Shown piece by piece: positions 3,886 to 61,013 of a stretch of DNA of 64,000 bases. Made by a program: the position numbers and the translations under genes. Source of the stretch: a virus; the IMG/VR virus record IMGVR_UViG_3300045988_148900, positions 64,001-128,000 of that record; one strand, given 5' to 3'. The notes under the pieces were generated by a model, which worked only from the letters and a program-made list of their open reading frames with translations, made no database searches and was not told the origin of the DNA. Position 1 is the first letter of the stretch. Each line of letters opens with the position of its first letter.

Positions 3886-3907
3886 AATTTAACGGATATA
3901 TAATTGC
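3886..3907 (-). promoter_or_regulatory. phage-specific promoter-like motif GCAATTATATATCCGTTAAATT
   Basis: Exact consensus copy on the minus strand between the terL stop (3919) and the ATG at 3874. Confidence 0.5.
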
Positions 3908-3918
3908 TTAACGGAATC

Positions 3919-5913
3919 TCAGTCCGACGGCGCATCCATAGCATTCAAGATGTCCCAAACACCTCCTCGACGACGAGAACGCTGACTCATAGCAACAACA
4001 TCAGACGAGGTGAAAGACGAGCCTGTAGACGCTCGACCTGCAATCAAATCTCGCATCCGAGAGCTACCAACATCTGGAACATCCTCCGCATAACCAGAAA
4101 CCCGCGAAACGCCATGCCGACGATCGAAGGACATCCCCTCATAACCAAGACGCTTCATCATGCCCTCAATGCTCGTAGCACCACAAAGATTTATGCGACC
4201 ATCGTACAAGCTACTAAGGTCGCCATCCTGCGTACAAACCGTCTCCGACAAAAAGAAGGCACCAATGCAAGTCTGGAACTGGTCGTCTGTAGAACCATCG
4301 CGCTTAACAACACGATGCTTCGCAATATCATGAACAGCCTCACGAATCTCGGTATCCTGACGCTCCAAATACTGCATATGAATACGAGCATCGACAACCA
4401 TAGAAAGCCAAAGCAAATGCGGAATATCCGAACTATCCAAAGACATGCGAATATTCGGTAAATCCAGCCGCTCACAGACATTTTGTCGTAGCTGGGCGGA
4501 CTGGAATGCGTCGGAACTGAAAACAACGATATTTAGCCGATCTGCAAGCCAATAAAGCAAATCCTCAACCTTGGAAATCTTAAGCATCCCCGGAAACTGA
4601 GGAGGAACAAGATCCAAGTTGAAAACCTCCGAATGCTCAGCACGACCATCATCCATGAAACCGTCAAAGCGAACACAACACAACGACGCATGGTCGCCCG
4701 TCAAGGACAAGTCAAGGCACAAAGCATGCGGCCTATCCGTATCCACAAACTTACGCTCATCGAAAACAGAATTCAAAGGAACATCATCCTGATCCGAAAC
4801 AACAATGCTATCCTGAACCAAAGGACATGCCCGTCGAAGAGAATCAGAATAACAAGCCTTAACAGCGTCATAGTTCGTAATAAAACCTCCCTTAGACGCC
4901 GTAGACCGCCCACAATGGTTCTGAATAGCCAAGTAGATATTCTTCTTAAACTGAGGCTGCAAGTCAACTGGTACCTTCTCAAAGAACGACTGTGCCTTAG
5001 GACGCGGTAAACCAATAGAGCGAAGTAACGTATCCTTATGGGCCTTGCTCTGAACAACACAAGGTGACAACTGCTGATAACCACAGAAAACCTCGAACAT
5101 CTTCTTAGAATAGTTCTGGGGACAAATCTTATATTGAACAGCCGTGACAACTCGAGCATACGGATCATGCTCAAACTCCTCTATCTTCTGCTCTATAAAG
5201 GAAGACGCATAAGAAGCTGAGGAAATATAACAAGTAAACGAGATCAGCTTACCTCCTTCGCGAGTGAAACGTGAATGCATACGGTCCTCCAACTGCTGAG
5301 CCAAACGCTGAACCTCTGTATACTCGGACAACATACCATTGCCAACACCACTCCTAAAGTTTGCCTCGTCAAGAATAGCCCCAACAACATTCAAACCAAT
5401 AGCATGACTCTCTCCTGACGCAAACTCTATAGAAAAATTGTTGCCAAACTGGATAGACGACTGGATATCCTTCCGACGCGGAAAATGATTCTGAAACCAC
5501 GGAGCGTTATCTATCATCTGACGAAGCTGCTTAAAACCAGAACGCTCCGCGGCCTTCATCGAAACCGAAAAGTATAAAAAGTAAATAGGAGTGCCACGCA
5601 AAATGCCAAAGTAGCTATACAAGTCGCCCTGCATAAACCACCGATACAACCGATAGCAAACAATCATATTAGCGTAGCTCGACTTGCCCGATCCCAGAGA
5701 CCCAGTCAATATCAGCGAATTAACATCAGAACTCGTCCGCTTAGCCTCCTCTAACCAAAAAGGATAGACTCCCTCCAATGCCATATACTGAGGATCGGTA
5801 AGAAACGTGTAGAAATCTACAAGCTCATCCTCCCCGGCACCCAAGAAGTCCTTGACCGCAGAAACCACAGACCCTCCACTACGCTGCTTAAGTATATCGT
5901 CTATCCGACCCAT
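3919..5913 (-). CDS. terL: terminase large subunit
   Basis: Walker A LTGSLGSGKSSY, Walker B GAILDEANF, and a C-terminal domain of nuclease size. The track start at 5934 is TTG. The first ATG is 5913 (MGRIDDILKQ). Confidence 0.85.
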   Translation of the reverse strand: MGRIDDILKQRSGGSVVSAVKDFLGAGEDELVDFYTFLTDPQYMALEGVYPFWLEEAKRTSSDVNSLILTGSLGSGKSSYANMIVCYRLYRWFMQGDLYSYFGILRGTPIYFLYFSVSMKAAERSGFKQLRQMIDNAPWFQNHFPRRKDIQSSIQFGNNFSIEFASGESHAIGLNVVGAILDEANFRSGVGNGMLSEYTEVQRLAQQLEDRMHSRFTREGGKLISFTCYISSASYASSFIEQKIEEFEHDPYARVVTAVQYKICPQNYSKKMFEVFCGYQQLSPCVVQSKAHKDTLLRSIGLPRPKAQSFFEKVPVDLQPQFKKNIYLAIQNHCGRSTASKGGFITNYDAVKACYSDSLRRACPLVQDSIVVSDQDDVPLNSVFDERKFVDTDRPHALCLDLSLTGDHASLCCVRFDGFMDDGRAEHSEVFNLDLVPPQFPGMLKISKVEDLLYWLADRLNIVVFSSDAFQSAQLRQNVCERLDLPNIRMSLDSSDIPHLLWLSMVVDARIHMQYLERQDTEIREAVHDIAKHRVVKRDGSTDDQFQTCIGAFFLSETVCTQDGDLSSLYDGRINLCGATSIEGMMKRLGYEGMSFDRRHGVSRVSGYAEDVPDVGSSRMRDLIAGRASTGSSFTSSDVVAMSQRSRRRGGVWDILNAMDAPSD

Positions 5914-6034
5914 ACATCTAAAGAAAAGCCCCAAAGGAGGAGGGCCTGCACTCCCTCACTCCCCGGAGCAATACACATCCATCAATCTAATCTACTATCT
6001 GGCGAAATCCTCGTGCAGAAGGACTATATAAAAA

Positions 6035-6559
6035 CTAAGAACGCAAGTCAGCCAAGAAGTCATTAAGACCCGATAAATGATCATACTCGTCCGCCTGAAT
6101 CTCCTTAACCAGCCGCTCCGTCGTGTAGTCACCCAAATCCCGAGACAAATCAATAATCCGCTGATAATGACGAATAGCGCACTCCTCGGACTCGATATTC
6201 TGCTCCAGTATAGGAACGAGCTCCGAAACATTCTCCGGCGTGTGATACTCACACTCAGCTGTCGACTGAATATTGGCAAAGTCGAAAATGTGCGTCGGAA
6301 CATACTGAAGCTCATTCATACGATTGAGAAGCTTCACAAAATGATCATCAAGCTCATCTTTAGCTGTAGCATTGAAAAACTCCTCGATATTGGCTCGCTC
6401 CTGACCCACAAGATAAGGAGAGACGACACGATAAGCGTAAAAAGCGAGAATTTCTTCTGCCGCTGCAATTTCGAGCTCATTGCAAATAGACAGACGAGAC
6501 TCGTCGGGCAAAATATCATCTAACGAGTCGGAAATATACGAAGCAAAATCCCTGACCAT
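6035..6559 (-). CDS. bacterioferritin-like (ferritin-like di-iron) protein
   Basis: C-terminal 174 aa of track ORF 6035..6865, starting at the ATG at 6559. The helices align by eye with Bfr: AAEEILAFYAY / KDELDDH / ESEECAIRHY / EIQADEYDHL (ExxH ligand motifs). Confidence 0.65.
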   Translation of the reverse strand: MVRDFASYISDSLDDILPDESRLSICNELEIAAAEEILAFYAYRVVSPYLVGQERANIEEFFNATAKDELDDHFVKLLNRMNELQYVPTHIFDFANIQSTAECEYHTPENVSELVPILEQNIESEECAIRHYQRIIDLSRDLGDYTTERLVKEIQADEYDHLSGLNDFLADLRS

Positions 6560-6601
6560 ATTATAAAAAGATATATCCGGTAAACCCACATTGAATTTAC
6601 T

Positions 6602-6615
6602 GGATATATAATTGA
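6602..6615 (-). promoter_or_regulatory. phage promoter-like motif copy (TCAATTATATATCCAGTAAATT)
   Basis: Minus-strand copy 42 nt upstream of the ATG at 6559 and just after the stop of gene 6630..7430. Confidence 0.4.
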
Positions 6616-7439: not shown

Positions 7440-8000
7440 CTAAATATTATTGCAAAAATCTACCATCATATCCAAAACAGCCTCCGTAGCCTCCAACTCC
7501 GACTGTCGCTTATGAAGACCACGCTGGCAAAACACAAGCAACGACGGCACTAAACGCCGCGGAACATCAATACGTGAGAAACCAGCATCGCCAGAAAGAT
7601 AAGGAAGCAAATCGGAAAGCTCCGACGGTACAATCTCCGGAACCTTACCCTTCGACGGCGAAACAGACTCAAGCCTATCTTCACGGTTCAATCTACGTAA
7701 CAAATTGCCAGCCTCATTGCGAATCATCGTATAAAGATAATTATACGGTGACATCGACTTATCGAAACGATCGTGACGCTCCATAATAGTCATCAAAGCC
7801 TGACTACGCAAATCGTCAAAGTCCTGATAATACTTGCCAAAGTGAGTATTCAAAACAATACTGATAACCTTGTGAATCTCGTCAAGCTCCCGAGACGTAA
7901 CCTCAGAAACAGGATGAAGATAAAACTGAAGAAGTATCTTCTTATCTATCGCAACACGAGCGGTAGAAGAACTGACAAGTATCTCTGACGAATCACACAT
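7440..8000 (-). CDS. sigma-70 region-2-like protein (gp55-like size and architecture)
   Basis: 186 aa. DDLRSQALMTIMERHDRFDKSMSPYNYLYTMIRNEAGNLLRR follows the sigma-70 region 2 pattern. No recognisable region-4 HTH. Confidence 0.55.
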   Translation of the reverse strand: MCDSSEILVSSSTARVAIDKKILLQFYLHPVSEVTSRELDEIHKVISIVLNTHFGKYYQDFDDLRSQALMTIMERHDRFDKSMSPYNYLYTMIRNEAGNLLRRLNREDRLESVSPSKGKVPEIVPSELSDLLPYLSGDAGFSRIDVPRRLVPSLLVFCQRGLHKRQSELEATEAVLDMMVDFCNNI

Positions 8001-8245
8001 GGCTGTAGTAACTTTTTAAGTAATCCAAAACTCGAAAACGTGTGGTCCTATCAGCTAAAGGCCACCAATAAACACACTTCAACTCCTCTTTATGAACATG
8101 AGGCTTACATCGGTAATCTACAGTAGTCCACGTGCGGGGCTTGAATGAACTCGTAAGATGCGGACGTGTAAACTCCTCTATGACATCGGACGTCTTTAAC
8201 AACGACGGCAACCAAAAAGGCCGTGTATCATCAAAAGATAAACAC
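7993..8245 (-). pseudogene. 3' part of a phage ORF split by the tnpB element
   Basis: Reading frame ...CLSFDDTRPFWLPSLLKTSDV...YYSHV* continues the frame of 9509..9630 once the element and one TSD copy are removed. Confidence 0.7.
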
Positions 8246-8271
8246 AGGTGATTATATACAATTCTACACTG
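8246..8271. repeat. terminal inverted repeat, tnpB 3' side (copy A)
   Basis: AGGTGATTATATACAATTCTACACTG. Includes the tnpB stop codon and is identical to the copy B repeat at 50837-50862. Confidence 0.8.
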
Positions 8272-9442
8272 CACATATTGGCGTTTCATCGACTTCGTAA
8301 CCTCCGTCTCCACGCCCATCGAACCGTCCCACCGACGGCAAAAACATCGCTAAACCCTCTCTCAAAATGTTGCTGGCGGCATTTAAGTCTCGGTCGTGGA
8401 CCGTACCACATTGTGGACACGCCCAAGTCCTATTGCCTAACGTAAGACCGTCGTTCTTGTAGCCGCAACACCCACAGGTCTTGCTACTCGGGAAGAAACG
8501 GTCGATCTTTAAAACCGTCTTACCCAACCAACGCGCCTTATATTCCAAGACACGAACGAACTCAAACCAACATACACTCTGGATGGATTTAGCTAATCTA
8601 TGGTTACCCATCATGCCCTTAACATTCAAGTCCTCGATAAAAATGGCTTGGTTCTCACCTAAAATACCGTTGACTGCATGATGGATAAAGTTATGAATTA
8701 AATTACGTTTCTTAGCATATAGTTTATTGATTTTTAATCTTATCTCCGCACGGCGACGACTGCCTTTCTGTCGTCTTGCTTCTATTTTCTGCAAGCGGGA
8801 TATCCGACGATCGATGACGTCCGCGAAACGCGGATTAGGTATCTTGCGACCGTCGGAGGTAACCACAAAGTCCTTCAAACCCAAGTCCAGCCCGACACAC
8901 TTGGACTGGCTTGTGATAGGCGTGGGTTTAAGCTCAGGAACACCCGTCTCGACAAGGCAACTCACCCAAAAGAGTCCGCAGCCGTCGCAACTTACCGTGA
9001 CGTTACGTAACTGACCCGCAAACCGACGATCCTGCTTATAGCGTACTAAACCAATCTTCGATAGTTTGATGTGACTACTTTCCTGATCGACACCACAATG
9101 GGTGGACGGAAAACGACATGATAGCTTGCTCCGATGCTTCGACTTAAACCTTGGAAAACCCTGATGCGTCCGGAAAAACATCCGGTAAGCACTATACATA
9201 TCTCGAACCGACTGAACCAAACAAACCGCAGGAACGTCATACAACCATGCGTACTCGGACTTCAGGCCCGTCATCAAGTTAATACATTCGAACTCCGACA
9301 AGGACGTCTTATCTGTCTTGTAAGCCTTAATCTTAATATCAAGCGTAGCATTATAAACAAACCGACAACAACCGAACGTCTGACGCAACATTGCCTGCTG
9401 CGTCTTGTTCGGATAAAGCCGATATTTATAAGCACGCTTCAT
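8264..9442 (-). CDS. tnpB: TnpB RNA-guided nuclease family protein
   Basis: 392 aa. RuvC triad contexts GLDLGLKD / FIEDLNV / HDRDLNAA, and zinc finger CGCCGY...CPQCG. ATG verified. Confidence 0.9.
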   Translation of the reverse strand: MKRAYKYRLYPNKTQQAMLRQTFGCCRFVYNATLDIKIKAYKTDKTSLSEFECINLMTGLKSEYAWLYDVPAVCLVQSVRDMYSAYRMFFRTHQGFPRFKSKHRSKLSCRFPSTHCGVDQESSHIKLSKIGLVRYKQDRRFAGQLRNVTVSCDGCGLFWVSCLVETGVPELKPTPITSQSKCVGLDLGLKDFVVTSDGRKIPNPRFADVIDRRISRLQKIEARRQKGSRRRAEIRLKINKLYAKKRNLIHNFIHHAVNGILGENQAIFIEDLNVKGMMGNHRLAKSIQSVCWFEFVRVLEYKARWLGKTVLKIDRFFPSSKTCGCCGYKNDGLTLGNRTWACPQCGTVHDRDLNAASNILREGLAMFLPSVGRFDGRGDGGYEVDETPICAV

Positions 9443-9446
9443 ATCA

Positions 9447-9454
9447 CAAAGATA
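9447..9454 (-). promoter_or_regulatory. host-type -7 box TATCTTTG upstream of tnpB
   Basis: Minus-strand TATCTTTG lies 4 nt before the tnpB ATG and matches TAnnTTTG. Confidence 0.35.
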
Positions 9455-9482
9455 GTTATTTATTTACATCTATGCAAGACGG

Positions 9483-9508
9483 TAGTGTAAAATTGTATGT
9501 AATCACCT
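9483..9508. repeat. terminal inverted repeat, tnpB 5' side (copy A)
   Basis: The reverse complement AGGTGATTACATACAATTTTACACTA matches the other end at 23/26. Confidence 0.8.
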
Positions 9509-9701: not shown

Positions 9702-10724
9702 CTACCTATTTCCAGACCGCGTGCTCACAGTACGCTCTATTAACGACCTAAGCAAAACTTCAACACCTACCTCCGACCCCAAAGCCTGCTGAGCCAAAGG
9801 AGAAAAGAAGAACCCAAACAGAGTCTTACCCAAACCTGCCTTCTGAAGCCGAAACTCAACAGAACCCTCATCAGTAGTAGCGTAAATATTACGCAACAAC
9901 AAACCAACGGACATCCGAACATCTATAGTCGGATACAACAGCAACTCCGAAAGAAGAGACGACGGATCTGTACCCCCAGACTTCGAAAAGCAAGCAACAA
10001 TGAAATCACGGAACTTGAAGTAAGAACTATCCAAAGCACGCGGACCCGCAAGCTCATAGAACTGAAGAAGCTGAAGAGCATTACGCATATGACCCTCCGA
10101 CTTCATAGCCAAAATGTGAAGCTCGTCCGCAGACAACCGAGTACCACGACTCGCAGCGATCTTAGCAACATGAGCCTCAACCAACGGAAGAGGAATAGTA
10201 CTAATGTCGATATTCACACACCGAGACTTCAAAGTAGGCGAAATATCCTCCGTACCACAAAACATGAAAATAGTATTAGGAACACCCTCCTCAACCGTCT
10301 TCAAAAGAGCATCACTACTACTACGAGAAATGGCCTGAACCTCGTCCAAGACCACAACACGACGCCCTTCCGGCACTACCATAAGCTGCTCCTTAAGACG
10401 TCTAATCCCCTCAATATTGCCCACAACCGTACCATCAAGCTCCCAGTAAAGACTCGAGTTGGACGCAGAAGCCTCCTGACACCCAGCACACGCATTACAA
10501 ACGTCGTCCTTGTGCTTAAACTCCGTACAATTCATAGCTCTGCCAAAAATACGAGCTATGCTTGACTTCCCTGAACCGAAGCTTCCCTTCAAAAACAAGG
10601 CCCGGGCTGCAATCCCGTCAGCATGGGCTATACGCTTCAGAGTCGTAACAGCCAAATCCTGACCAACCATCTCGCCAAAGGTCTTCGGCCTATACAAATT
10701 AGCTAAATTCTGATCCTGCGCCAT
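9702..10724 (-). CDS. clamp-loader ATPase (DnaX/RFC-like)
   Basis: YRPKTFGEMVGQD, Walker A GSFGSGKSS, Zn module CTEF..C.AC.GC, Walker B VVVLDEV, SRC motif LKSRC. Confidence 0.8.
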   Translation of the reverse strand: MAQDQNLANLYRPKTFGEMVGQDLAVTTLKRIAHADGIAARALFLKGSFGSGKSSIARIFGRAMNCTEFKHKDDVCNACAGCQEASASNSSLYWELDGTVVGNIEGIRRLKEQLMVVPEGRRVVVLDEVQAISRSSSDALLKTVEEGVPNTIFMFCGTEDISPTLKSRCVNIDISTIPLPLVEAHVAKIAASRGTRLSADELHILAMKSEGHMRNALQLLQFYELAGPRALDSSYFKFRDFIVACFSKSGGTDPSSLLSELLLYPTIDVRMSVGLLLRNIYATTDEGSVEFRLQKAGLGKTLFGFFFSPLAQQALGSEVGVEVLLRSLIERTVSTRSGNR

Positions 10725-10727
10725 AAA

Positions 10728-11060
10728 CTACTCCTCCGGCTTGAACAAAGAATAAAGAAGATCTGCGTCCAAGGAAACCCAGAAATCTATATCAGCATCA
10801 TGAAAAACCTCCGAGTGCGATATCCACTCGTCCGTGTCATGGTAAACAACTTCAACGATAAAACCACTCGTGAGAAAAGCTAAAACCGAAGACCCAACAC
10901 GAGGATGTTGATCAGAAGGCTTATAAGAACGCACATCCGGACCGAAAAGATTCTCAAGGACCGCTATAACGCCTCGCCGACACGAACCATAACTCAGAAG
11001 CCGATCCAACTCCGAAAGCCTCCGGGCTATCCCATCAACAAATGAATCAAGCTGCTTCAT
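10728..11060 (-). CDS. hypothetical protein
   Basis: 110 aa, ATG verified. Preceded by a degenerate motif copy (GCAATTATAACTCC, 11083-11095). Confidence 0.6.
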   Translation of the reverse strand: MKQLDSFVDGIARRLSELDRLLSYGSCRRGVIAVLENLFGPDVRSYKPSDQHPRVGSSVLAFLTSGFIVEVVYHDTDEWISHSEVFHDADIDFWVSLDADLLYSLFKPEE

Positions 11061-11094
11061 TGCCTTAACCCAAAAAATATAGGAGTTATAATTG

Positions 11095-11862
11095 CTACTC
11101 CCTACCTAAACACTTGAATAACTTCTCAATATGAGATACAGCTGCACCCTCCTTAGAGTACATAAGATTACGCTTCTCGTTGGACCAAATAAGCTCCCAA
11201 CGCCCCCAATCCGGCTCCGTATACTCTGAAAGATAAACATCACAATGATTATCGTCTACCTGGGAACAGGCCCAACGGTAAAAAGCAGCATGATCAAAAG
11301 CATTAGACTTCCCATCGCCTGTCTTGTATCCTGAAACGCTGCGGTAAGGAATATCATTGTAAACCATTGATTCTGAGGGTATTACGAGATCTCTGTAGTC
11401 TCCGCTGAACAACTTGACGTCACGCATGCCGCTATGATACTTCATGGTGAACTGACGATAGATAGATGCACGGTTCCGGTCCTGATACATCTTCCCTGCG
11501 TAGCCCTGAAAGTAAGTGGCCTTAAAGGAGCAGCAGAAGCCAACATAAGCTATAAACCAAGACTGATACTCGTCCTTATGAGCCCGGATGTAAAGGTAAT
11601 CCTCCTTAGAAACCTCCTCCGGAAAGGTGTCTGCAGGAAAGCACCACTCACAGGTGCGCTCATCGAAGTAAACCTTCTCCTGAAGGTATTTGAACATGTC
11701 AACAATGACATGATTATACTCATTGCCCCAACGAGGACCACTCATGGCGGTAACAACATTGAAACCACCACCAAAGGCATCCACAAATAACTGATCCGGC
11801 GAACGCCTACGAGACTCCAAGATTGGAATTATCTGCTCAAGGATGCCTCCCTTGCTACCCAT
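11095..11862 (-). CDS. N6-adenine DNA methyltransferase (Dam/D12 class)
   Basis: FVDAFGGGFNV (FxGxG SAM motif) and YNDIPY (DPPY-type motif IV). The track start at 11871 is GTG and the ATG is at 11862. Confidence 0.75.
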   Translation of the reverse strand: MGSKGGILEQIIPILESRRRSPDQLFVDAFGGGFNVVTAMSGPRWGNEYNHVIVDMFKYLQEKVYFDERTCEWCFPADTFPEEVSKEDYLYIRAHKDEYQSWFIAYVGFCCSFKATYFQGYAGKMYQDRNRASIYRQFTMKYHSGMRDVKLFSGDYRDLVIPSESMVYNDIPYRSVSGYKTGDGKSNAFDHAAFYRWACSQVDDNHCDVYLSEYTEPDWGRWELIWSNEKRNLMYSKEGAAVSHIEKLFKCLGRE

Positions 11863-11894: not shown

Positions 11895-12494
11895 TTAACT
11901 GAACCTGAACTTCAAATTAGACAAAAACTGCTCCGTAAGATCATTAAAAGGCATGTCTGGAAACATTAACGTAACACGCTTCCCATAACTGCTGTAAAAC
12001 GACTGAACCTTAGAACCAGCACGAAGACCCGTGTTCGTCTCCTTGCCAAAGTCATTATCACAACAATAAGAAATATCATCAAACAAAGACAATACAATAT
12101 GAGTAGCTTTTCGATTGCCTGCCAAGGACGTAAAACCTAAGACATTACGATCCGGAAAACACAGCTTAGCAGACAGGTAATCAGAAACACCCTCAGTGAT
12201 AATAACAGAGCGATCCTGTAGATTTAATAACGAAAGACCTACAAGACCAAAATGATCTATAACCGTATCCTTAACCTTTGAACCAACGGAGCGCGTATAC
12301 CAAAAAGATACCCGCGCTCCAGATGGATTAGGAAGCCGCTCGATCACATCTACAGAAACACTCTCCGTAATAAGATTATTACGAACCTCAACACCTCCGC
12401 GAACCCCGCCCCACAACTCCAGCAACTGAAGCCACTGGTAGTTCTTAAGACGAAAGCCATCCGGAAGACGAATGTGATCAAGCGGCAAAAGCAT
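11895..12494 (-). CDS. Toprim-domain protein (DnaG-like)
   Basis: VIITEGVSDYLS ... YCCDNDFGKETNTG gives the Toprim E...DxD signature. Confidence 0.6.
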   Translation of the reverse strand: MLLPLDHIRLPDGFRLKNYQWLQLLELWGGVRGGVEVRNNLITESVSVDVIERLPNPSGARVSFWYTRSVGSKVKDTVIDHFGLVGLSLLNLQDRSVIITEGVSDYLSAKLCFPDRNVLGFTSLAGNRKATHIVLSLFDDISYCCDNDFGKETNTGLRAGSKVQSFYSSYGKRVTLMFPDMPFNDLTEQFLSNLKFRFS

Positions 12495-13133: not shown

Positions 13134-13175
13134 AACGCAAAAGTAAGTAGAATAAAATTGATAAACAAATTGTAT

Positions 13176-16028
13176 CTACCGCATTGACGCTAAAAAAGAC
13201 TTGCTAAGACACTCCTCGCACAACGTGAACCCTTTGCCGGAACCCACATCAAGCACTGCAGGACGGCCACAGCACTTACAAGAATGAAACTCACGAGAAC
13301 GCAAGGTAGTAACGCAATCAACTGCAGTACCCCTAAAAAGCTTGTTCGGGTGAACACGCTTCGGACGTAAAACCGCCTGAATGTAATACCACGGATTACA
13401 ACGCACCGGAATGACTAAGACACCCTTAGATCCTCCGCGACCGTCTGAGACGACCAATGGGGCGGAAAGCGGCCCAGACCTCAACATATATGGCTTATAC
13501 TTGTCTCCCTCCAAATGTAAGGTAGAACCGTCATACTTAGGAAGCACAAAAGACCAAACGTCCATAGGCAAATCCGACCGGAAAGAAAACAGATTCAAAT
13601 CATCCAACGAAATTGGAATATCAGAAACATCATCTGAAACCCCAAGAACCTCAAAGGACACACTACGGGAATTTAACCCCTGAAAGAACTGACTAACAGC
13701 CGAAACATCATTATAAGACCGAAACTCCAAGTCCACAAGCTGGCTCCCGCCAACATCCCAATGACTATCCGGATAACTCTGACCATAAAGAGAATTAACC
13801 TGCGACACCCGAATAAAAGAATCACAAAGACCCTGATTACACCTTAAAAGACTTGACGCAAAAAGATGCGACGTGGCGCGCGGATTTAGAATTCTGCCAT
13901 AGGACGTCCTCTTTAATCTGAAACGCAGAATATGGGCCGCCTCTGGCTTCTTGTGGGCCTTTATATCGTCGGCGGAGATGGTCGAAGGCAAAGAACGACG
14001 AGACGCAAGACCCGAACGCCCGCAGGCATGGCAATCTGAAACACGAACACCCGGAGAACCTGAAAGAAAACCATCAGATCCTAACGAGACATCCGCAAAC
14101 TGAAAGACCGGATTATTCGAAACCAAAAAAGACGAACAAACACCCCTACACGAATCGGTGCGCAAACACCGAGGCATGCTGAAATCCGGAAAACCTGACG
14201 ACGAAAGACCCTTACGCTCCTGATACCGACGAACGCCATCCAAGCTCGTATGAACCCAATGCAACAACGATATGTAACCATTAAATGAACGCTTATCGAA
14301 GAAGCCTGACTCATCACTACCAATCATAGTACGAAGAGACTTAAAGAAAGGCAAGTCGCGTAAAGACCGCAGCTTATACAAGTTCGAACCCGACGCAACC
14401 TCCCGATGAAGCAACGGAGTCAGACGACGACCAAAGGACACCAAAGCCTGCTCAAGCAGCGTGCTATAACGATAACCATTAACCTCAAAGCGAACACCAA
14501 GCTCGTCCGTGAACCGAGAATACCACTCAGTCGAAATCCACTGACCGTCGTCAAAACTAAGACGAGCAGCGCGCTTCTCAATACACTCCAAAGGCGTCAA
14601 CGGATACTGAACCAAAGGCGTAGCCTTAAACCGTATAGGTAACTTGCCCCCACGACTTGCAGCATACGTAAGCCAACGCTTCGTGAAGCCATAAAGCCAC
14701 TGCCAGTCCGACTCCTCCTCGTAACCCGAAAGAACAAGACCAATCTTAATATCCAAGCAACCCCTATGAATCATGAAGCGCATATAAGACTCCAAAGCCT
14801 CCTCCGAAAGACCCTTATTATAAAGACTGTTCCATATCCGAGGACTAACACCCTCAATAGGAGCCGTGCCGCGACGAAAACCTAAGGCGAAAAGAAGCTC
14901 CATAGCATCTTCATCCTTCCCAAGCTCCTCCATGCGCATATTGCTGAACGTAACCGTAGGAAACACATCCTGAACCTTAGCTACCGTGCCCTTCCAATCC
15001 GTCAAATAGTTGAGATTATAGGCGGCGAGCTTAACCGTATCCGACGCACTCCGAAGCTTAGCAACACGCGCCATAGAAACAATGGTATCCTGAGACTCCT
15101 CCTGTAAGCCACCCGCAAGATGACCCTCAGCACAGAAAGAACAGTTGCCCGCAAAACCACAACCCTCGGCGGCCGAAACCATAGCCAAATTGGTATTACC
15201 ACCATTGCCGCGAATATAACCCGCAGCAGCCCCAAGCAAACCCTCAGGCTTGGACGAACCCAGACAGAAAGTAGCATGATCTGGAGCATCTGCACGAACA
15301 CGACATGTAGACACAATCCTATTACCGCACCACTCAAAAGAATAAGACTGCGGCTGGTAAAAACAAAAAGAACCTTGACTATACCATAAGTAATTCAAAT
15401 ATTGATCCACCGTAGTAGTAGACCGTGGAAAAGAACCCATAGCGTCAAAAAGAAGCTTCTCGTCCCACGTCTGACCCAAATACATGAAGTCTAAGTAACT
15501 ATAACGACCGTCACCAAGAGACCCAAACAAAACATCAGCATAAACAACAGACGCACCTCCCGCATAAATAAGAGGAACATCGGTACGACCATTCCGCTCC
15601 GTGTACGACAACGGAATAGGCTTATCGCACCTGCTGAACGTAGCAAGCATCCACGGAACAACCGGAATCTCATAAAGACACGAAATACTAAAACCAACAA
15701 TGTCAAAATGAGACGGATCGAGATGAGACGAAATACCAATAGCATAAGGAACCTGCTCCTTATCATACCAGCGTATATCATCCCTATGCGGTAGAAACGC
15801 AAAGTCTATAAATACGCCCGGACAGCAAGTCTTAACCCAGTCGAGCAAGACCGTAGGAGTCATCGAATGAGTCTTATCAAAAGACGACGACGGAAAGACT
15901 ATAAGCAACTTCAGATTAGAAGCAGCATAAGCGTCCATAGACATCAGACCTGCATCCGGGTTGTAAAACTCACACCCGTCATGCAAGACTGACTTGTAAC
16001 TCTCTATAAACCGCTCGCTACGTGTCAC
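13176..16028 (-). CDS. large radical-SAM-like protein (TIGR03960-type layout) with C-terminal extension
   Basis: 950 aa. AEGCGFAGNCSFCAEG gives a CX5CX2C cluster. FDIVGFSISCLYE..PLIYAGGASV lies upstream. GTAPIEGVSPRIWNSLYNKGLSEE / IKIGLVLSGYEEESDW / FKATPLVQYPLTP lie downstream. C-terminal CKCCG..CEEC ribbon. GTG start overlaps the upstream TGA. Confidence 0.7.
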   Translation of the reverse strand: MTRSERFIESYKSVLHDGCEFYNPDAGLMSMDAYAASNLKLLIVFPSSSFDKTHSMTPTVLLDWVKTCCPGVFIDFAFLPHRDDIRWYDKEQVPYAIGISSHLDPSHFDIVGFSISCLYEIPVVPWMLATFSRCDKPIPLSYTERNGRTDVPLIYAGGASVVYADVLFGSLGDGRYSYLDFMYLGQTWDEKLLFDAMGSFPRSTTTVDQYLNYLWYSQGSFCFYQPQSYSFEWCGNRIVSTCRVRADAPDHATFCLGSSKPEGLLGAAAGYIRGNGGNTNLAMVSAAEGCGFAGNCSFCAEGHLAGGLQEESQDTIVSMARVAKLRSASDTVKLAAYNLNYLTDWKGTVAKVQDVFPTVTFSNMRMEELGKDEDAMELLFALGFRRGTAPIEGVSPRIWNSLYNKGLSEEALESYMRFMIHRGCLDIKIGLVLSGYEEESDWQWLYGFTKRWLTYAASRGGKLPIRFKATPLVQYPLTPLECIEKRAARLSFDDGQWISTEWYSRFTDELGVRFEVNGYRYSTLLEQALVSFGRRLTPLLHREVASGSNLYKLRSLRDLPFFKSLRTMIGSDESGFFDKRSFNGYISLLHWVHTSLDGVRRYQERKGLSSSGFPDFSMPRCLRTDSCRGVCSSFLVSNNPVFQFADVSLGSDGFLSGSPGVRVSDCHACGRSGLASRRSLPSTISADDIKAHKKPEAAHILRFRLKRTSYGRILNPRATSHLFASSLLRCNQGLCDSFIRVSQVNSLYGQSYPDSHWDVGGSQLVDLEFRSYNDVSAVSQFFQGLNSRSVSFEVLGVSDDVSDIPISLDDLNLFSFRSDLPMDVWSFVLPKYDGSTLHLEGDKYKPYMLRSGPLSAPLVVSDGRGGSKGVLVIPVRCNPWYYIQAVLRPKRVHPNKLFRGTAVDCVTTLRSREFHSCKCCGRPAVLDVGSGKGFTLCEECLSKSFLASMR

Positions 16029-17391: not shown

Positions 17392-17399
17392 CAAAGATA
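17392..17399 (-). promoter_or_regulatory. host-type -7 box TATCTTTG
   Basis: Minus-strand TATCTTTG lies 19 nt upstream of the ATG at 17372 and directly after the terminator at 17451-17487. Confidence 0.4.
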
Positions 17400-17450
17400 A
17401 AAACGTTAAATTAATAAAACAAATAAAAACCATGGAAAATTGCTTCTATC

Positions 17451-46765: not shown

Positions 46766-46966
46766 CTACTGTGATAACAGCTCCTTCAGCTGAGCAAGAC
46801 TCATGCGAAAAGCATAAGGACCCTCGGAATCATCTGCATAGCCTACAAACCATACCTTATCCGCAGCAAGCCCCTGACTATTAAAAACCGATAGCATATT
46901 AATAGGAGAAACCTGAGACTCTGAAACCTCACTACCAGACGACGCGCGTGAAACAGTATCTGCCAT
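46766..46966 (-). CDS. hypothetical protein
   Basis: 66 aa from the ATG at 46966 (MADTVSRASS...), 16 nt downstream of a motif copy. Confidence 0.5.
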   Translation of the reverse strand: MADTVSRASSGSEVSESQVSPINMLSVFNSQGLAADKVWFVGYADDSEGPYAFRMSLAQLKELLSQ

Positions 46967-46982
46967 AACCAATCAATTTAAC

Positions 46983-46996
46983 GGATATATAATTAC
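46983..46996 (-). promoter_or_regulatory. phage promoter-like motif copy (GTAATTATATATCCGTTAAATT)
   Basis: Minus strand, immediately after the terminator at 46995-47036. Confidence 0.45.
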
Positions 46997-47036
46997 AAAA
47001 ATGGTGCCGGAGAAACCTCGTAAGAAACCCGGCACC
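46995..47036 (-). terminator. hairpin terminator
   Basis: Minus strand GGTGCCGG-N18-CCGGCACC (perfect 8-bp stem) followed by ATTTTTG. Confidence 0.5.
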
Positions 47037-47176: not shown

Positions 47177-47205
47177 AGAAAAAGCTCCTGATATGAATCA
47201 GGAGC
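47177..47205 (-). terminator. rho-independent terminator
   Basis: Minus strand GCTCCTGAT-TCAT-ATCAGGAGC (perfect 9-bp stem) followed by TTTTTCT. Confidence 0.65.
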
Positions 47206-47247
47206 CCACACTACAACAATATGGATCGAACTCGCCTAAGTCCATCC
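47177..47247 (-). ncRNA. candidate short phage transcript (motif to terminator)
   Basis: The promoter-like motif (47248-47261) is followed by ATGGA-N15-TCCAT and then the 9-bp-stem terminator. I found no ORF longer than about 6 codons. Confidence 0.25.
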
Positions 47248-47261
47248 GGATATATAATTGC
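47248..47261 (-). promoter_or_regulatory. phage promoter-like motif copy (GCAATTATATATCCGGATGG)
   Basis: Exact 14-nt core, 15 nt after the ligase stop. No protein gene follows it. Confidence 0.45.
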
Positions 47262-50740: not shown

Positions 50741-50798
50741 ACACCTACTTAAGTCACTGCAAATGTATGTTAATTAATTTAATCTATCAAATAAAATT

Positions 50799-50836: not shown

Positions 50837-52099
50837 AGGTGATTATATACAATTCTACACTGCATATATTGGCGTTTCACCGACTTCGTAACCTCCGTCT
50901 CCACGCCCCTCAAACCGCCCCACCGACGGCAGTATCTCCACTAAACCCGCACGCAAAATGTTGATGGCGGCATTTAAGTCACGGTCGTGGACCGTACCAC
51001 ATTGTGGACACGTCCAAGATCGGTCCTTAAGTGTAAGACCATCGTTCTTATAACCGCAACAACCACAAGTCTTGCTGCTCGGGAAGAAACGGTCGATCTT
51101 TAAAACCGTCTTACCAAGCCACCGCGCCTTGTAATCCAAGACACGAACAAACTCGGACCAACAAATGTTTTGAATGGATTTAGCCAAACTGTGATTACCC
51201 ATCATACCCTTAACATTCAAGTCCTCGATAAACACGGCTTGGTTCTCACCCAGTATCGAGTTGACTGTATGATGGATAAAGTTATTAATCAAATTACGTT
51301 TCTTAGCATATAACTTATTGATTTTAAGTCTTATCTCCGCACGGCGTCTACTGCCTTTCTGGCGGCGGGACTCGATCTTCTGCAGACGCGATATGCGGCG
51401 ATCTATAACATCCGCGAAACGCGGATTAGGTATCTTACGTCCATCGGATGTAACTATGAAGTCCTTCAACCCCAAGTCAAGACCAACGCACTTAGACTGG
51501 CTTGTGATAGGCGCGGGTTTAAGCTCAAGAACACCCGTCTCCACAAGACAACTAACCCAATAACGTCCGCAACCATCGCAGCTCACCGTGATGTTACGTA
51601 ACTGCCCTTTGAACCGACGATCTTGCTTATATTTAATCAAACCGATTTTCGGCAATTTAATGTGACGCGTTTCTTGGTCTACAGAGCAGAAGGGAACCGA
51701 AAATCTACACGATAATTTACTACGATGTTTGGACTTAAACTTTGGGTAACCCTGCTTGATCTTAAAGAATTGCTGATAAGCACTATCCATGTCATAGACT
51801 GCCTGCGGCAGACATACATGCGGAACAACACGCAACCACTCATGCTCTTCCTTAAGACCTGTAATTAACTTGATGCAGTCGAACTTAGACAACGTCGTCT
51901 TATCCGCCTCATATGCCTTTATCTTAGCAGCAAGTGTGGCGTTATAAATGAACCGACAACAATCGAACGACTGACGCAACATCGCCTCCTGCGTCTTGTT
52001 CGGATAAAGTCGGTATTTATAGGCACGCTTCATGATGCTAATATAGTTGTTTATTTACGTCTATGCAAGCTGTTAGTGCAAAATTGTATGTAATCACCT
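50837..52099 (-). mobile_element. tnpB-only element with TIRs and 6-bp TSD (copy B, 1263 bp)
   Basis: Same ends as copy A (50837-50862 and 52074-52099, 22/26 as inverted repeats). Flanked by direct ACATGT at 50831-50836 and 52100-52105. Confidence 0.8.
50855..52033 (-). CDS. tnpB: TnpB RNA-guided nuclease family protein
   Basis: 392 aa. About 85% identical to the copy A protein by eye. RuvC D/E/D contexts and the zinc finger are intact. Confidence 0.9.
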   Translation of the reverse strand: MKRAYKYRLYPNKTQEAMLRQSFDCCRFIYNATLAAKIKAYEADKTTLSKFDCIKLITGLKEEHEWLRVVPHVCLPQAVYDMDSAYQQFFKIKQGYPKFKSKHRSKLSCRFSVPFCSVDQETRHIKLPKIGLIKYKQDRRFKGQLRNITVSCDGCGRYWVSCLVETGVLELKPAPITSQSKCVGLDLGLKDFIVTSDGRKIPNPRFADVIDRRISRLQKIESRRQKGSRRRAEIRLKINKLYAKKRNLINNFIHHTVNSILGENQAVFIEDLNVKGMMGNHSLAKSIQNICWSEFVRVLDYKARWLGKTVLKIDRFFPSSKTCGCCGYKNDGLTLKDRSWTCPQCGTVHDRDLNAAINILRAGLVEILPSVGRFEGRGDGGYEVGETPIYAV

Positions 52100-53157: not shown

Positions 53158-53247
53158 GTTGTGTAGTATAGAGCTGCCAGCAACATCGCCGACAGCACCA
53201 CAAAACTACAAAATAGAATTCAAAAAAACAAAGAAAAGTTGCTAAAA

Positions 53248-57256: not shown

Positions 57257-60200
57257 TTATATTATATTATTAGAATAGACTGATTTAAGAAATACAGAAG
57301 CTTTTGAATAACTCTCAGGAGTATTGGTTAAAACTATACCATTGGCATTCTCAACAACGGCAGCCGTAGAATCATCCAAAATCGTACCCAGTAAAGAATA
57401 ATCTACCTGTACGAAGTCTAAACCTATATTAGATAAGACCGTATTTTTTTGAGTATCAGTAAGATTCTGACCTTCACTATACCTTACAACATCAGTAGCA
57501 TAACCAGCCGAAATCAAAGAAAGTTTTTTGCTGGTATGAGATAAAGTCAGAACAAACCAAACTCTTGCGTTAAACTCGCTGACAAAAGTAGTAGTAACAG
57601 TATTAGAACTACCCACAAAATACAAAGATGGCGCATTATTTCCATCCGGGACGTTCTCTAAAAACACACCTTTAGCGGTCAGTAACTTATTATAAGTACT
57701 ATCATCCAACGTAGAGCCAATCAGTGAATAGTCTACGTGCACCAAAGGAAGCCCGATATTAGACAGGGCCATGTCTTTTTGAGTATTGGTTAGATTCTGA
57801 TTCAAATTACTTACTACTAACTTTGATGTCTGAACTAAGCTAAGTGTCTTATTCGGAATGTTCAAAACAAAATAATTTATATCCTGAAAATTCTCGATAG
57901 AAGAAAAAGTAATAGTACTGACTAATTTTGACCCAACAGTAAATACTACTGAGCGTATGTAATCATCAGGAGTATTAGTCAAGATAATCCCTTTGGCATT
58001 TACAAGCTGAGACAGTCTATCGTCGGATAAAGTAGTCGCTAATTCAGAGTAATCTACAATGACAAAATCAAGACCTATATTAGACAAAGCCGTATCCTGC
58101 TGCGATGTGGTTAAATTCTGAACCTCGGCGTATCTTACCGAACCTCCATAAGTTAAACCGGAACTTAGACCTGACAATAATTTTGTAGACTTGTTAAGTG
58201 CGAATATAGAATACGTATTTCCCGTAACAAAGCTTACGAAGATACAAGACCCAGATGTATTATTGCCTTTAATGAAAACCGTCGGATTCCTGTAATCGGA
58301 TGGTGTATCAACTAAAACAATACCTCGGGCATTATCAACAACTGCAAGCATCTCGTCCGACAGTGTAGTACCCAAAAGAGAGTACGGAATTCTAACAAGA
58401 TCAATACCTATGTTGCCCAAGGCTTTATTCTTATTATCATCAGAAACACTACTCTGATCACGATCAAAAGAAACCGCACTCGGATCGTATAAGTATGCGA
58501 AACTCGAAGTAATAACCCCGGTCGCCTCATTGACATTCAAAGCCGTACAGAAACTGTTGCTGAACTGTCCGTAAAAACGACGGCTACCACCTGACGTGAT
58601 AGAAAAATTATAGAGTAAGCCTGTCTCCTGCACCAATAAGGCGGTGGCCGAAAGACGTGCGGCTTTCTCATCGTCCGAAACAGCATCCGAGGAACCAATA
58701 GCAGACTCCGAGATCACATGAACCTTCCAACCTAAATTCTCGAACGCCTGTGATTGTTGTGCACCCGACAAAGAAGTAAGACGATCAAACCTGAGGGCTC
58801 CTGGATCATTTAAAAACAAATTACCATTAAAAACAAATGTTTTCGACGCCTTCTTATAGGAACAATATAAAGCCAAAGTATTAGACCACAGGCTATAAAA
58901 AATAGGCTCGGGTACACTCGCAAAATTGGAAGATGTGAAAATATGATTATCTGCATTATATATACCCACGCCAGTATTAGTACCATCAACAGTCAGTAAA
59001 ACAGCAGCTCCTGCCAGTAACTTAGCATCCTCCTCATCCGTGAGAACGACAGACGTTGCACCCTCCGGGAATTTTAATACAACCAAGTCTAAACCTAAGT
59101 TTGACCAAGCCTGCTCCTGCTGCGCACTCGTCAAAGCTGGATTTTGGACGGTAAAATGCAAGCTCAAAGCATCTTGAAAATTGTAGCTATTAAGAGCAGA
59201 CACCACGCCCGTAGATCGTGTAATAGATAGTATCGCAATAATAGAATTAGACACAGAACGAGTGAAAGTAATCCTATTCGAATCTAAAGTCCCCAATAAA
59301 AACAAATCCCCCGTATCAGTAAACAGAAGAACCTTAGAAGCAGCTACCTGTTCTATTTCCTCCGCCGATAAAGTAGACCCTAAAAAGCTACTATCCGTAA
59401 CATAGACCTTCATGCCTAAGTTGGCAAACGCCTGTGCCTGTTCAGTAGCAGACAGAGTCTGCATTTTTATAGATACCGCATTAGGATCTATGAAACTTGC
59501 CGAAGTAAGAAAACGAAATAGTTTAGTGGACTTAGTGTAAATACACTGTAAAATATATCTGTTGTTTCTTACTGCCCAAAAACTTACTTGATCCCCTCCT
59601 TGATAGTCACTAAAATATATTTTAGTAAGTACCTCTTTGCCCGCAGCTACCGTGCCACGCAAGATAACTCCTTTACACGACAACAATCTATCCTCCTGAT
59701 CATCGGTAAGTGTCGCCTGACCATTGACAAGATCGATAATCATCAGGTCAGCACCTATATTTTCCAATGCTTGATTCTGAGCCGAAAGACTCAAAGACTG
59801 GGCAATATCCGTCCTAACCACCTTCGAGGCAAAATCAGCAGACGTGACATGATCATTGATGCGCGCCTGAAGATCAACAGAAAGACAATCCCAGTCAATG
59901 GAATTCTTAAGAACCGTGGCATGGATGACATTATTCTCGTCTATAGAAATCTGAATCCGATCGCCAATAGAACCAACATATTCCTTGACAAAGGCACTAA
60001 CCGGAATACTCGTGGTAGTACCATCAGCATTATCAAACTCAATGCTCTCGGTCTCTGCGTTATAACGTAAGGCCAGCTGCTCGATAGGCAAGTCAATCTC
60101 TACAGACGCACCAGCAAGAGTCGTGAACGTAATCTTATAAGACGACGAATCGTAAGCCGGAAGACCTACACAAGTATTAAGCAACTCGCGAATGTCAGCA

Positions 60201-60979
60201 TGAGAAGTAGACGACGTATTATGAATAGATATGCTCTCCGTAACAGACTCCAAAGACGCCTTCTTACTCAACTCCTCCGTAACAGACGCCTGTGACATGA
60301 TAAGATTAGAACTATTACCAGTCGTATCTACAACAGCATCAACACCAACCTTCTGGAGAAGCTCCTCAGTAACGGCATTCTGAGACAGGACAGCAGTAGT
60401 ACTGTTACCCGGACCCTGAACAATCTCAAAAATATCAACCTGATCTGCAATATACTGCTTGAGGTTATCCGTAGTGACAAAACCACTCAGAAAATCTATA
60501 ACCTCAGGAAGCGTGTCGATGCTCAAATCAGGAACTGCCGTAAACGAGTCAATAGTATAATCAAGATTCTGTGACAGCTCCGTGGAATTGAACGTCTTAT
60601 ACTTCATCTCCCCAATAGCCCCAACCTGAGAAATAAAGAGTAAGTCCTTCTCGTAAAGATAAGACACCGTAAGCAAGATAGGATAATATCCGGCAGCCCG
60701 CAAGGACAAAACCAAAATGCTATTCTCCTGCCCAAGAACGACTGACAAATAAAAAGCATCTGAAACCCCCGAAGCCATAGGCTCCGAGTCTACAACACCA
60801 TCTACGCTCCGATAAACATCATACATGACAGAACTGCCAAACGACTGACATATACGAAGTAATACCGACTTCTCCTGAAAGGACAATGAAAGTGATTGGG
60901 CTGTAGAAGCAACTAAACCCGCAACGGCACTCATCTGAGCAACAGGACTCTCCAAGGGACGATAAGTTACAAGAGACAT
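57257..60979 (-). CDS. modular tail fibre protein
   Basis: 1240 aa from the ATG at 60979. Eight tandem modules each begin L(T/S)xxQ(K/Q)xxAxxN(I/L)G (e.g. LTDTQKNTVLSNIGLDF). The N-terminal region has (S/T)Q(N/A)(A/S)VTEEL repeats. Confidence 0.8.
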   Translation of the reverse strand: MSLVTYRPLESPVAQMSAVAGLVASTAQSLSLSFQEKSVLLRICQSFGSSVMYDVYRSVDGVVDSEPMASGVSDAFYLSVVLGQENSILVLSLRAAGYYPILLTVSYLYEKDLLFISQVGAIGEMKYKTFNSTELSQNLDYTIDSFTAVPDLSIDTLPEVIDFLSGFVTTDNLKQYIADQVDIFEIVQGPGNSTTAVLSQNAVTEELLQKVGVDAVVDTTGNSSNLIMSQASVTEELSKKASLESVTESISIHNTSSTSHADIRELLNTCVGLPAYDSSSYKITFTTLAGASVEIDLPIEQLALRYNAETESIEFDNADGTTTSIPVSAFVKEYVGSIGDRIQISIDENNVIHATVLKNSIDWDCLSVDLQARINDHVTSADFASKVVRTDIAQSLSLSAQNQALENIGADLMIIDLVNGQATLTDDQEDRLLSCKGVILRGTVAAGKEVLTKIYFSDYQGGDQVSFWAVRNNRYILQCIYTKSTKLFRFLTSASFIDPNAVSIKMQTLSATEQAQAFANLGMKVYVTDSSFLGSTLSAEEIEQVAASKVLLFTDTGDLFLLGTLDSNRITFTRSVSNSIIAILSITRSTGVVSALNSYNFQDALSLHFTVQNPALTSAQQEQAWSNLGLDLVVLKFPEGATSVVLTDEEDAKLLAGAAVLLTVDGTNTGVGIYNADNHIFTSSNFASVPEPIFYSLWSNTLALYCSYKKASKTFVFNGNLFLNDPGALRFDRLTSLSGAQQSQAFENLGWKVHVISESAIGSSDAVSDDEKAARLSATALLVQETGLLYNFSITSGGSRRFYGQFSNSFCTALNVNEATGVITSSFAYLYDPSAVSFDRDQSSVSDDNKNKALGNIGIDLVRIPYSLLGTTLSDEMLAVVDNARGIVLVDTPSDYRNPTVFIKGNNTSGSCIFVSFVTGNTYSIFALNKSTKLLSGLSSGLTYGGSVRYAEVQNLTTSQQDTALSNIGLDFVIVDYSELATTLSDDRLSQLVNAKGIILTNTPDDYIRSVVFTVGSKLVSTITFSSIENFQDINYFVLNIPNKTLSLVQTSKLVVSNLNQNLTNTQKDMALSNIGLPLVHVDYSLIGSTLDDSTYNKLLTAKGVFLENVPDGNNAPSLYFVGSSNTVTTTFVSEFNARVWFVLTLSHTSKKLSLISAGYATDVVRYSEGQNLTDTQKNTVLSNIGLDFVQVDYSLLGTILDDSTAAVVENANGIVLTNTPESYSKASVFLKSVYSNNII

Positions 60980-60999
60980 GCGCAACACAATTATTTAAC

Positions 61000-61013
61000 G
61001 GATATATAATTGC
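61000..61013 (-). promoter_or_regulatory. phage promoter-like motif copy (GCAATTATATATCCGTTAAATA)
   Basis: Exact 14-nt core, 20 nt before the tail fibre ATG and just after the terminator at 61046-61074. Confidence 0.5.

Follow-up and report, generated by a model that had tools for sequence, protein, structure and literature searches.

The 64,000-nucleotide stretch analysed here (the window; positions 64,001 to 128,000 of IMG/VR virus record IMGVR_UViG_3300045988_148900) carries a genuine repeated signal of 21 bases in front of phage genes, with the consensus GCAATTATATATCC-N3-AAAT. We consider it likely, on balance, that this motif is a phage-specific promoter made of a single element, most plausibly read by the core RNA polymerase of a Bacteroidales host together with a 186-aa sigma-70-family protein encoded in the same window. 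A preliminary description of this DNA had proposed such a promoter from the letters alone; the present analysis supports that proposal at the level of sequence and adds the candidate reader, which had been overlooked.

A repeated signal on the coding strand between phage genes

The exact core TATATATCC occurs nine times in the window, precisely where nine strong copies had previously been listed (low coordinates 3894, 6602, 22436, 28791, 34022, 45529, 46983, 47248 and 61000). All nine lie on the minus strand, which is the coding strand as it carries all credible open reading frames (ORFs) of the window, and the plus strand of the 64 kb holds no exact copy. When computed with refined gene starts, intergenic DNA makes up 8.7% of the window, and all nine exact copies (P = 2.8e-10), along with four variant copies, fall within it. 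Allowing up to three mismatches, a search of the window with a 22-mer returns 5 matches against 0.00 expected, and one with the 18-mer core returns 10 against 0.65.

A weight matrix made from 101 non-redundant instances of the motif scores 13 coding-strand sites at 10 bits or more, every one of them intergenic: six full copies of 33-38 bits, two of 18-20 bits that retain only the upstream core, four variants of 15-18 bits and a single degenerate copy of 13.9 bits (Table 1). Hence, the label 'strong' holds for six of the nine cores; those at 28791 and 47248 are the core-only copies, and the one at 34022, with 5.6 bits, is weak and comes next below the thirteen; it is identical in contig 146455. 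Two further degenerate copies had been claimed. The one near 11083 is probably real, because two relatives carry exactly the same bases across a mosaic breakpoint, whereas the one near 16947 is unsupported, because it scores 3.5 bits and is absent from the close relative 029747_6. The best score on the plus strand is a borderline 10.1 bits at 6570, and this is the inverted partner of the 6602 copy.

The logo reads G-C-A-A-T-T-A-T-A-T-A-T-C-C followed by three variable bases and A-A-A-T. The loci fetched from other contigs were selected by a pattern that contains the AAAT bases; these bases are nevertheless present in six of the nine window copies, which were found without that selection. In the 30 nt upstream of the motif (positions -35 to -6) no position exceeds 0.4 bit, and there is therefore no -35-type box. 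The conserved block is single and contiguous, as in T4-type late promoters with one -10-region element and no -35, and the earlier idea of a '-10-only' promoter fits both this pattern and the presence in the window of a small sigma with a clear region 2. As had been noted, the motif is also distinct from the host-type box, containing neither TAnnTTTG nor TTTG; a TAnnTTTG box does occur by chance downstream of the motif at 3887-3907, 4 nt before the ATG.

Across 98 non-redundant sites the distance from the CC to the ATG has a mode of 19-20 nt, a median of 21 and an interquartile range of 19-33, with about a fifth of the copies lying 57-196 nt away; in the window it is mostly 16-21 nt. A conserved AAA is found 6-8 nt downstream of the TATATAT. 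The placement of the copies 7-42 nt before an ATG applies to eight of the nine, in which the ATG opens an ORF, and fails at 47248, where an ORF-less hairpin RNA with a terminator follows instead. Several GTG and TTG 'starts' read through the motif, which therefore corrects gene starts, in line with the earlier view that such starts are artefacts. Four copies (61000, 46983, 45529 and 22436) have a hairpin with a T-run no more than 40 nt upstream, which agrees with the observation that several come directly after a terminator. The majority of window genes have no copy in front of them.

Two pattern scans of IMG/VR retrieved more than 110 loci on about 17 contigs of 15-142 kb each. Those of group A (143886, 029747_6, 146455 and 119172) have 87-97% nucleotide identity to the window. 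For group B (099149, 120231, 115942, 105530, 106436, 023490_5, 023490_14, 008299_14, 008299_185 and three 7000000624 contigs) megablast finds almost nothing beyond the terminase gene (about 77% nucleotide identity) and mobile TnpB copies (about 83%). The 17 related contigs hold 151 exact ATTATATATCC copies, confined to a single strand within each contig (e.g. 0/18, 17/0 and 14/0). At least eight orthologous motif positions are common to groups A and B. For instance, the motif is kept while the flanks diverge at the ferritin-like gene (66% protein identity) and a 205-aa gene (40%). It is likewise kept before the leading gene of the tail module, before genes encoding proteins of 604-619 and 148 aa and an acidic protein of 1220-1304 aa, and before two genes that lie ahead of head genes, one of 230 aa (portal) and one of 235 aa (gp23-like capsid). 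Among the individual sites, that at 3887-3907 is conserved in both groups upstream of an orthologous gene and that at 22429-22449 is retained upstream of orthologues 40% identical. Conservation in related phages, which the preliminary description had named as a check, is therefore seen even where the downstream proteins are only 40-66% identical. A further relative from rabbit gut, binned with a Muribaculaceae metagenome-assembled genome (MAG), has a sigma 67% and a TerL 72% identical to those of the window, and the G-rich strand carries all of its motif copies save for one opposite-strand match to the 10-mer core in L138. In a scan of 185,579 species genomes, repeated copies were found only in phage-like contigs binned with the Muribaculaceae MAG; other matches were scattered singles (and one double) across many phyla, consistent with chance. 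The motif has about 13 sites in the window and about 20 per genome.

With the rest of the genome taken into account, the genes so marked broadly fit the expected late or structural targets: the motif heads portal, gp23-like capsid, tail-module and tail-fibre operons, but it also precedes the ferritin-like gene, small genes of no assigned function and a non-coding RNA. The site at 45522-45542, for example, heads an operon of 45120-45503, 44607-45116, 42297-44600 (with a BACON domain) and 40973-42292. The core-only copy at 47241-47261, the predicted RNA at 47178-47247 and its terminator are predicted from sequence to form a minimal promoter-RNA-terminator unit; the RNA is conserved in the group A relatives 143886 and 029747_6, and Rfam finds no family for it, or for any other part of the window.

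Certain sites have local peculiarities. At the ferritin-like gene, the 3' part of the motif at 6595-6615 contributes one arm to a 14-nt inverted repeat (6571-6609), and at the corresponding group B site the motif is kept with a hairpin of different sequence, which suggests a conserved stem in the 5' untranslated region or a gene-specific operator. At 11075-11095 and 45522-45542, the sequences of close relatives cease to match precisely where the motif is reached from upstream, so these promoters coincide with boundaries of mosaic modules; the 11075-11095 copy is identical in the two relatives despite a different upstream flank. The four tandem variants GCAATTCTATATCC at 32126-32308, absent from the earlier list, have an A-to-C change and then ATTT in place of AAAT, and similar arrays occur at two loci in group A relatives. 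They could be stacked promoters, a sink for sigma or a transcription-primed origin. The second array (029747_6 110088-110291, equivalent to L003 about 10653-10873) stands in front of the tail module in the relatives of group A. The intergenic region of about 500 nt around the first (32100-32595, minus strand), which adjoins the UvsX-like gene, also holds a 17-nt tandem repeat of 2.5 copies (32419-32460) and a G-rich 14-nt repeat (32472-32504).

A sigma-70-family protein as the candidate reader

The 186-aa product of the gene at 7440-8000 matches the Pfam Sigma70_r2 domain (PF04542) over residues 54-106 with E = 1.2e-8 and 35 bits against a cut-off of 24. It also matches TIGR02937 (profile positions 17-84) and the Bacteroides-type subfamily TIGR02985 of extracytoplasmic function (ECF) sigma factors, over region 2 alone, and scores below the curated ECF family cut-offs (32 against 42.9 bits); neither Pfam nor NCBIfam detects a region 4. 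A word-indexed search recovered 5 close clusters of this protein, and an exhaustive HMMER search recovered 81 representatives (50% clustering), mostly of 175-205 aa and matching end to end. From an alignment of five sequences the AlphaFold2 (AF2) model was unusable, with a predicted local distance difference test (pLDDT) score of 46.6, and a profile search of the PDB gave no match; this alignment was replaced by one of 54 homologues, with which AF2 returned a model of pLDDT 89.5 comprising two helical domains, residues 20-111 and a confident three-helix domain at 126-185. Its best Foldseek match is region 2 of E. coli sigmaE bound to -10 DNA (probability 1.0, target-normalised template-modelling score 0.63, E 0.06), followed by full-length ECF sigmas. 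There are full-length alignments to 1or7_A and 6jbq_F, that of Foldseek to full-length sigmaE having a root-mean-square deviation above 15 A. Similarly, a profile of the protein finds ECF sigmas among PDB sequences, with a best E of 7e-4. Taken together, profile matches and structure model identify a sigma-70-family protein with a clear region 2 and a predicted ECF-like fold, for which core binding and promoter specificity are putative.

The phage also has a second class of promoters, eight intergenic bipartite TTTG-N17-21-TAnnTTTG elements of the host type on the coding strand, with none on the opposite strand. Several of them share the spacer ATTAAATTAAT, which is also found in the distant relatives L117 and L182. 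The sigma gene stands at the end of an operon that starts at one of these elements (13138-13169) and includes the Toprim and clamp-loader genes; the clamp-loader/sigma synteny recurs in L183, and in L117, where the sigma is 55% identical, its gene has its own TTTG...TATCTTTG promoter. A scan for E. coli-type sigma-70 promoters revealed no enrichment (36 against 30 +/- 5 expected).

Homologues of the sigma are present wherever the matching region of a motif-bearing contig is covered, namely in six IMG/VR contigs and the rabbit-gut relative. In L117, GCAATTATATATC[G/T] is found twice in intergenic DNA, both times behind a terminator. In L193, with a sigma 28% identical, there are three intergenic coding-strand GGTTATATATTT copies, which keep the TTATATAT core between changed flanks; this contig came from a profile search for related loci with a smaller sigma alignment, which otherwise returned mostly the same contigs. 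No clear motif was found in the short contigs with distant sigma homologues (L182 and L183). The retention of the core with altered flanks across diverged sigmas is the pattern that recognition of TATATAT by sigma region 2 would be expected to leave.

From these features we infer promoter activity, the pairing of sigma and motif, the start site and the timing of transcription, as follows. The host sigmaA holoenzyme would transcribe the early and replication operons from the TTTG/TAnnTTTG promoters, one of which drives the operon carrying the sigma gene. The newly made sigma would then redirect the core polymerase to the motif sites, which stand at the start of the operons for portal, capsid, tail and tail fibre, of certain small genes and of a single small RNA, so that these sites may be middle or late promoters. 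Sigma region 2 would bind the TATATAT core as a -10-like melting element, and transcription would begin at the A-run 6-8 nt downstream, giving leaders of about 15 nt; alternatively, the start might lie at the CC/G position.

Several points weigh against this reading. The link between sigma and motif is drawn from co-occurrence and analogy. The folded C-terminal domain (126-185) could be the equivalent of region 4, yet a -35 box at the usual distance is missing, and the geometry of recognition is therefore questionable; in addition, the invariant block of 14 bp exceeds typical -10-only elements. At the 28791 copy, the 7 nt between CC and ATG would make for a nearly leaderless mRNA on the proposed start. 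The motif precedes genes that are not obviously late, such as the ferritin-like gene and small ORFs, and the presence of its degenerate copy ahead of the clamp-loader and sigma genes makes a simple division into early and late less clear-cut. Finally, about 6 kb of the group A pan-genome lies outside coverage and several proteins of 773-922 aa are without annotation.

Among described systems, the closest in mode of action is gp36 of the E. coli phage phiEco32 (Kuravirus), which reads a single element, tAATGTAtA, without a -35 box and with the start 6-8 bp downstream, and whose gene is expressed before its targets, including structural genes (PMC8948821). This likeness is one of described mechanism, and the sigma is placed in neither the gp36 nor the gp55 family: both are small phage sigma-70-family proteins that act, or would act, with the host core polymerase on one conserved A/T-rich element, and the start proposed here, 6-8 nt after TATATAT, matches the spacing of gp36 promoters. 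In contrast to phiEco32, the consensus is another one, with a longer invariant block of 14 bp plus AAAT, the host belongs to the Bacteroidota, the sigma has a folded C-terminal domain and no gp79-like partner was identified. T4 gp55 likewise reads late promoters without a -35 element (PMC2988020). The present phage resembles T4 in its gp23-like capsid, gp20-like portal, clamp loader and UvsX-like protein, in a sigma of about 185 aa encoded among replication genes and in the lack of an upstream element. It differs in having all genes on one strand, and neither a sliding clamp nor a gp33 homologue was identified. Homology of the sigma to gp55 is not detected: hhalign gives a probability of 0.2%, PHROG 234 matches gp55 (2.9e-69) and not the sigma, and the top 50 Foldseek matches include no gp55 structure. 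The ECF (group 4) sigmas, for instance E. coli sigmaE, are the best profile and structural matches and are of similar size (175-205 aa), whereas the phage protein falls below their family cut-offs, has no region 4 detectable by sequence and would read a motif that is not bipartite -35/-10. The Bacteroidetes housekeeping promoters (-33 TTTG / -7 TAnnTTTG) share with the motif an intergenic position on the coding strand of the phage; however, the motif does not resemble them, and they form the separate set of eight.

Alternative readings of the motif

The motif might instead be a promoter read by an unrecognised phage RNA polymerase, multi-subunit or single-subunit and divergent, or by the host holoenzyme with a phage activator, and not by the 186-aa sigma. 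A near-invariant consensus of 14-21 bp is indeed more like the promoters of single-subunit polymerases than typical sigma elements, and such an enzyme could be sought in the uncovered 6 kb or among large proteins without a family (13176-15944, 17542-19863 and the 750-814-aa and 604-619-aa clusters). Nevertheless, Pfam finds no RNA polymerase (PF00940 or other) in most window proteins and the group A non-window clusters of at least about 175 aa, nor in the large proteins of the window or relatives, so that the likeness to T7-like systems does not extend to a T7-like polymerase among the scanned proteins; and a regular expression for an NADFDGD-type catalytic motif has no match in clusters of at least 250 aa. 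Moreover, an encoded sigma implies use of the host core enzyme and would otherwise be without a target. We therefore regard this alternative as improbable.

Less probable still is a signal acting at the RNA level, either a processing site for an endoribonuclease or an enhancer of translation initiation in a host without Shine-Dalgarno pairing. It would account for the strict limitation to one strand and the tight distance to the ATG, and an A/T-rich stretch just before start codons would suit initiation of the Bacteroidetes type. Against this, copies stand immediately behind strong intrinsic terminators, beyond which read-through RNA should be scarce, and one precedes a non-coding RNA that has no start codon; the remote fifth of the copies and the many genes without the motif also sit poorly with such a signal.

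We assign a marginally smaller probability yet to another kind of protein-binding site, such as the operator of a repressor or activator, or a recombination 'boundary' for module exchange. The palindromes ATCCGGAT at 28791 and 47248, the inverted repeat at 6571-6609, the iteron-like look of the tandem variant arrays and the breaks of similarity at the 11083 and 45529 copies could all be cited for it. However, most sites are not palindromic, and such a site has no need of a strict gene orientation or a fixed distance to the start codon. Conserved regulatory sequences are known to produce mosaic breakpoints at promoters as a by-product, as in the promoter-stem-loop cassettes of T4-type phages, which counts against a dedicated boundary.

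A promoter for a host alternative sigma exploited by the phage is conceivable, in that the closest named families of the phage sigma are ECF families, including TIGR02985, and a host paralogue might have a similar specificity, but with repeated copies restricted to phage-like contigs among the 185,579 genomes, and ECF promoters being normally bipartite, we consider it very unlikely.

The phage, its host and the significance of the motif

Table 1. Positions of the motif copies, promoters and genes in the window
Coordinates	Strand	Feature	Bits	Remarks
3887-3907	-	full motif GCAATTATATATCCGTTAAAT	38.2	ATG of 3182-3874 19 nt after CC; portal gene next
6595-6615	-	full motif TCAATTATATATCCAGTAAAT	33.1	upstream of ferritin-like gene 6035-6559
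11075-11095	-	degenerate copy AGCAATTATAACTCCTATATTTT	13.9	upstream of 10728-11060 and clamp-loader gene
22429-22449	-	full motif	38.2	terminator hairpin 22464-22496 just upstream; ATG of 21798-22415 20 nt after CC
28784-28804	-	core-only copy GTCAATTATATATCCGGATACC	20.0	ATG of 28466-28783 7 nt after CC
32126-32308	-	four variant copies GCAATTCTATATCC-N3-(A/T)TTT	15.5-18.0	spacing 54, 63 and 45 nt; upstream of 31785-32050
34015-34035	-	weak copy GTTGGTTATATATCCGAGTGC; GTTGGTTATATATCC	5.6	upstream of 49-aa ORF 33837-33986
45522-45542	-	full motif TGCAATTATATATCCCACAAAT	36.4	after terminator 45562-45601
46976-46996	-	full motif	33.6	directly after terminator 46997-47036; ATG of 46766-46966 16 nt after CC
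47241-47261	-	core-only copy	17.8	precedes ORF-less RNA
47178-47247	-	predicted non-coding RNA, about 70 nt		two hairpins, the second an intrinsic terminator with T-run; fold z = -3.05
60993-61013	-	full motif	37.2	after hairpin 61045-61074; ATG of 1240-aa tail-fibre-like gene 57257-60979 20 nt after CC
849-880	-	host-type promoter
13138-13169	-	host-type promoter TTTG-N20-TACTTTTG		heads Toprim/clamp-loader/sigma operon
17392-17423	-	host-type promoter
20948-20979	-	host-type promoter
26046-26076	-	host-type promoter
27954-27985	-	host-type promoter
50760-50791	-	host-type promoter
53201-53232	-	host-type promoter
1554-3122	-	T4 gp20-type portal
3919-5913	-	TerL		tblastn
6035-6559	-	ferritin-like		Pfam ferritin
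7440-8000	-	186-aa sigma-70-family gene, candidate motif reader		Pfam and structure model
8264-9442	-	TnpB (IS605 OrfB / Cas12f-like)
9702-10724	-	clamp loader
11895-12494	-	weak Toprim match		E = 0.023, below Pfam cut-off
23780-24688	-	metallophosphatase
26804-27934	-	TnpB (IS605 OrfB / Cas12f-like)
28823-29554	-	Tad3-like, 243 aa; candidate anti-defence gene		Pfam Tad3 (inhibitor of type I Thoeris), E = 8e-13
32596-33672	-	RecA/UvsX-like
39010-39969	-	HD domain
40391-40861	-	PNKP-type phosphatase
50855-52033	-	TnpB (IS605 OrfB / Cas12f-like)

The window keeps one skew throughout (plus-strand GC about -0.2, AT about +0.25). The composition of its coding strand is accordingly strongly biased (G 27%, T 34%, A 20%, C 18%), with no skew switch over 64 kb. 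It contains no tRNAs, and PHROGs and Pfam matched only the portal, a weak BACON domain and a weak ligase-like domain among its ten largest proteins. The rest of the group A genome, which is almost fully covered, adds a gp23-type capsid, a DnaB-like helicase, an M23 peptidase, an SNF2 helicase and a methylase; large proteins outside the window (912, 682, 1304 and 1276 aa) look structural or acidic in their composition and are without a Pfam match. Relatives contribute a DNA polymerase A with a LAGLIDADG intein (L036 5994-10070) and an intein in the clamp loader (L183 2072-3979). The TerL of one group B contig is 1101 aa long, compared with 664 aa in the window, a difference that may likewise reflect an intein. 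Two of the three TnpB genes sit on 1263-bp copies that are 81% identical (TnpB regions 8245-9508, 26804-27934 and 50837-52099); these copies look recently mobile, because they are absent at that spot in close relatives and lie elsewhere in others. A host-type TAnnTTTG box is found just upstream of at least two of the three TnpB genes (8264-9442 and 26804-27934).

An identity as a crAss-like phage was rejected, as the only nucleotide match to a GenBank phage is a tail-fibre segment of about 1.2 kb shared with cr108_1, and TerL is 26-28% identical to terminases of Vibrio siphophages. In more detail, about 1.2-1.6 kb of the 1240-aa tail-fibre-like gene (58110-60409) has about 90% nucleotide identity to a hypothetical gene of cr108_1 (Steigviridae; NC_055878.1 20442-22559). 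This sharing with an otherwise unrelated phage probably means that phages with a common host have swapped a receptor-binding module. BACON domains, host-type promoters, the crAss-like tail-fibre segment and the MAG binning are evidence pointing to a host in the Bacteroidales.

The strategy of a phage sigma acting on the host polymerase is well known, and the conceptual surprise is modest, because sigma replacement is a textbook mechanism. What is new is the phage family and the consensus, as we found no paper describing either the group or the motif and no close GenBank phage. To our knowledge, the transcription programmes of Bacteroidales phages other than the crAss-like ones are essentially unstudied. 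The present results thus offer a regulatory map for a hitherto uncharacterised family of 70-140-kb gut phages from human and rabbit gut metagenomes, comprising early promoters of the host type, a phage sigma and about 20 putative cognate promoters per genome that head virion-gene operons; the motif further marks operon boundaries and flags one small RNA. The compact sigma with its 21-bp promoter is a plausible orthogonal expression part for Bacteroides. A broader reading, doubtful as a whole, would join these strands into an undescribed transcription family of Bacteroidales phages with T4-type heads, represented by the 81 sigmas, in which late transcription is coupled to the clamp, as the clamp-loader/sigma synteny hints, and the arrays at 32126-32308 and the second locus act as transcription-primed origins or sigma sinks. 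If true, the sigma/promoter pair would be an orthogonal module usable in Bacteroides engineering.

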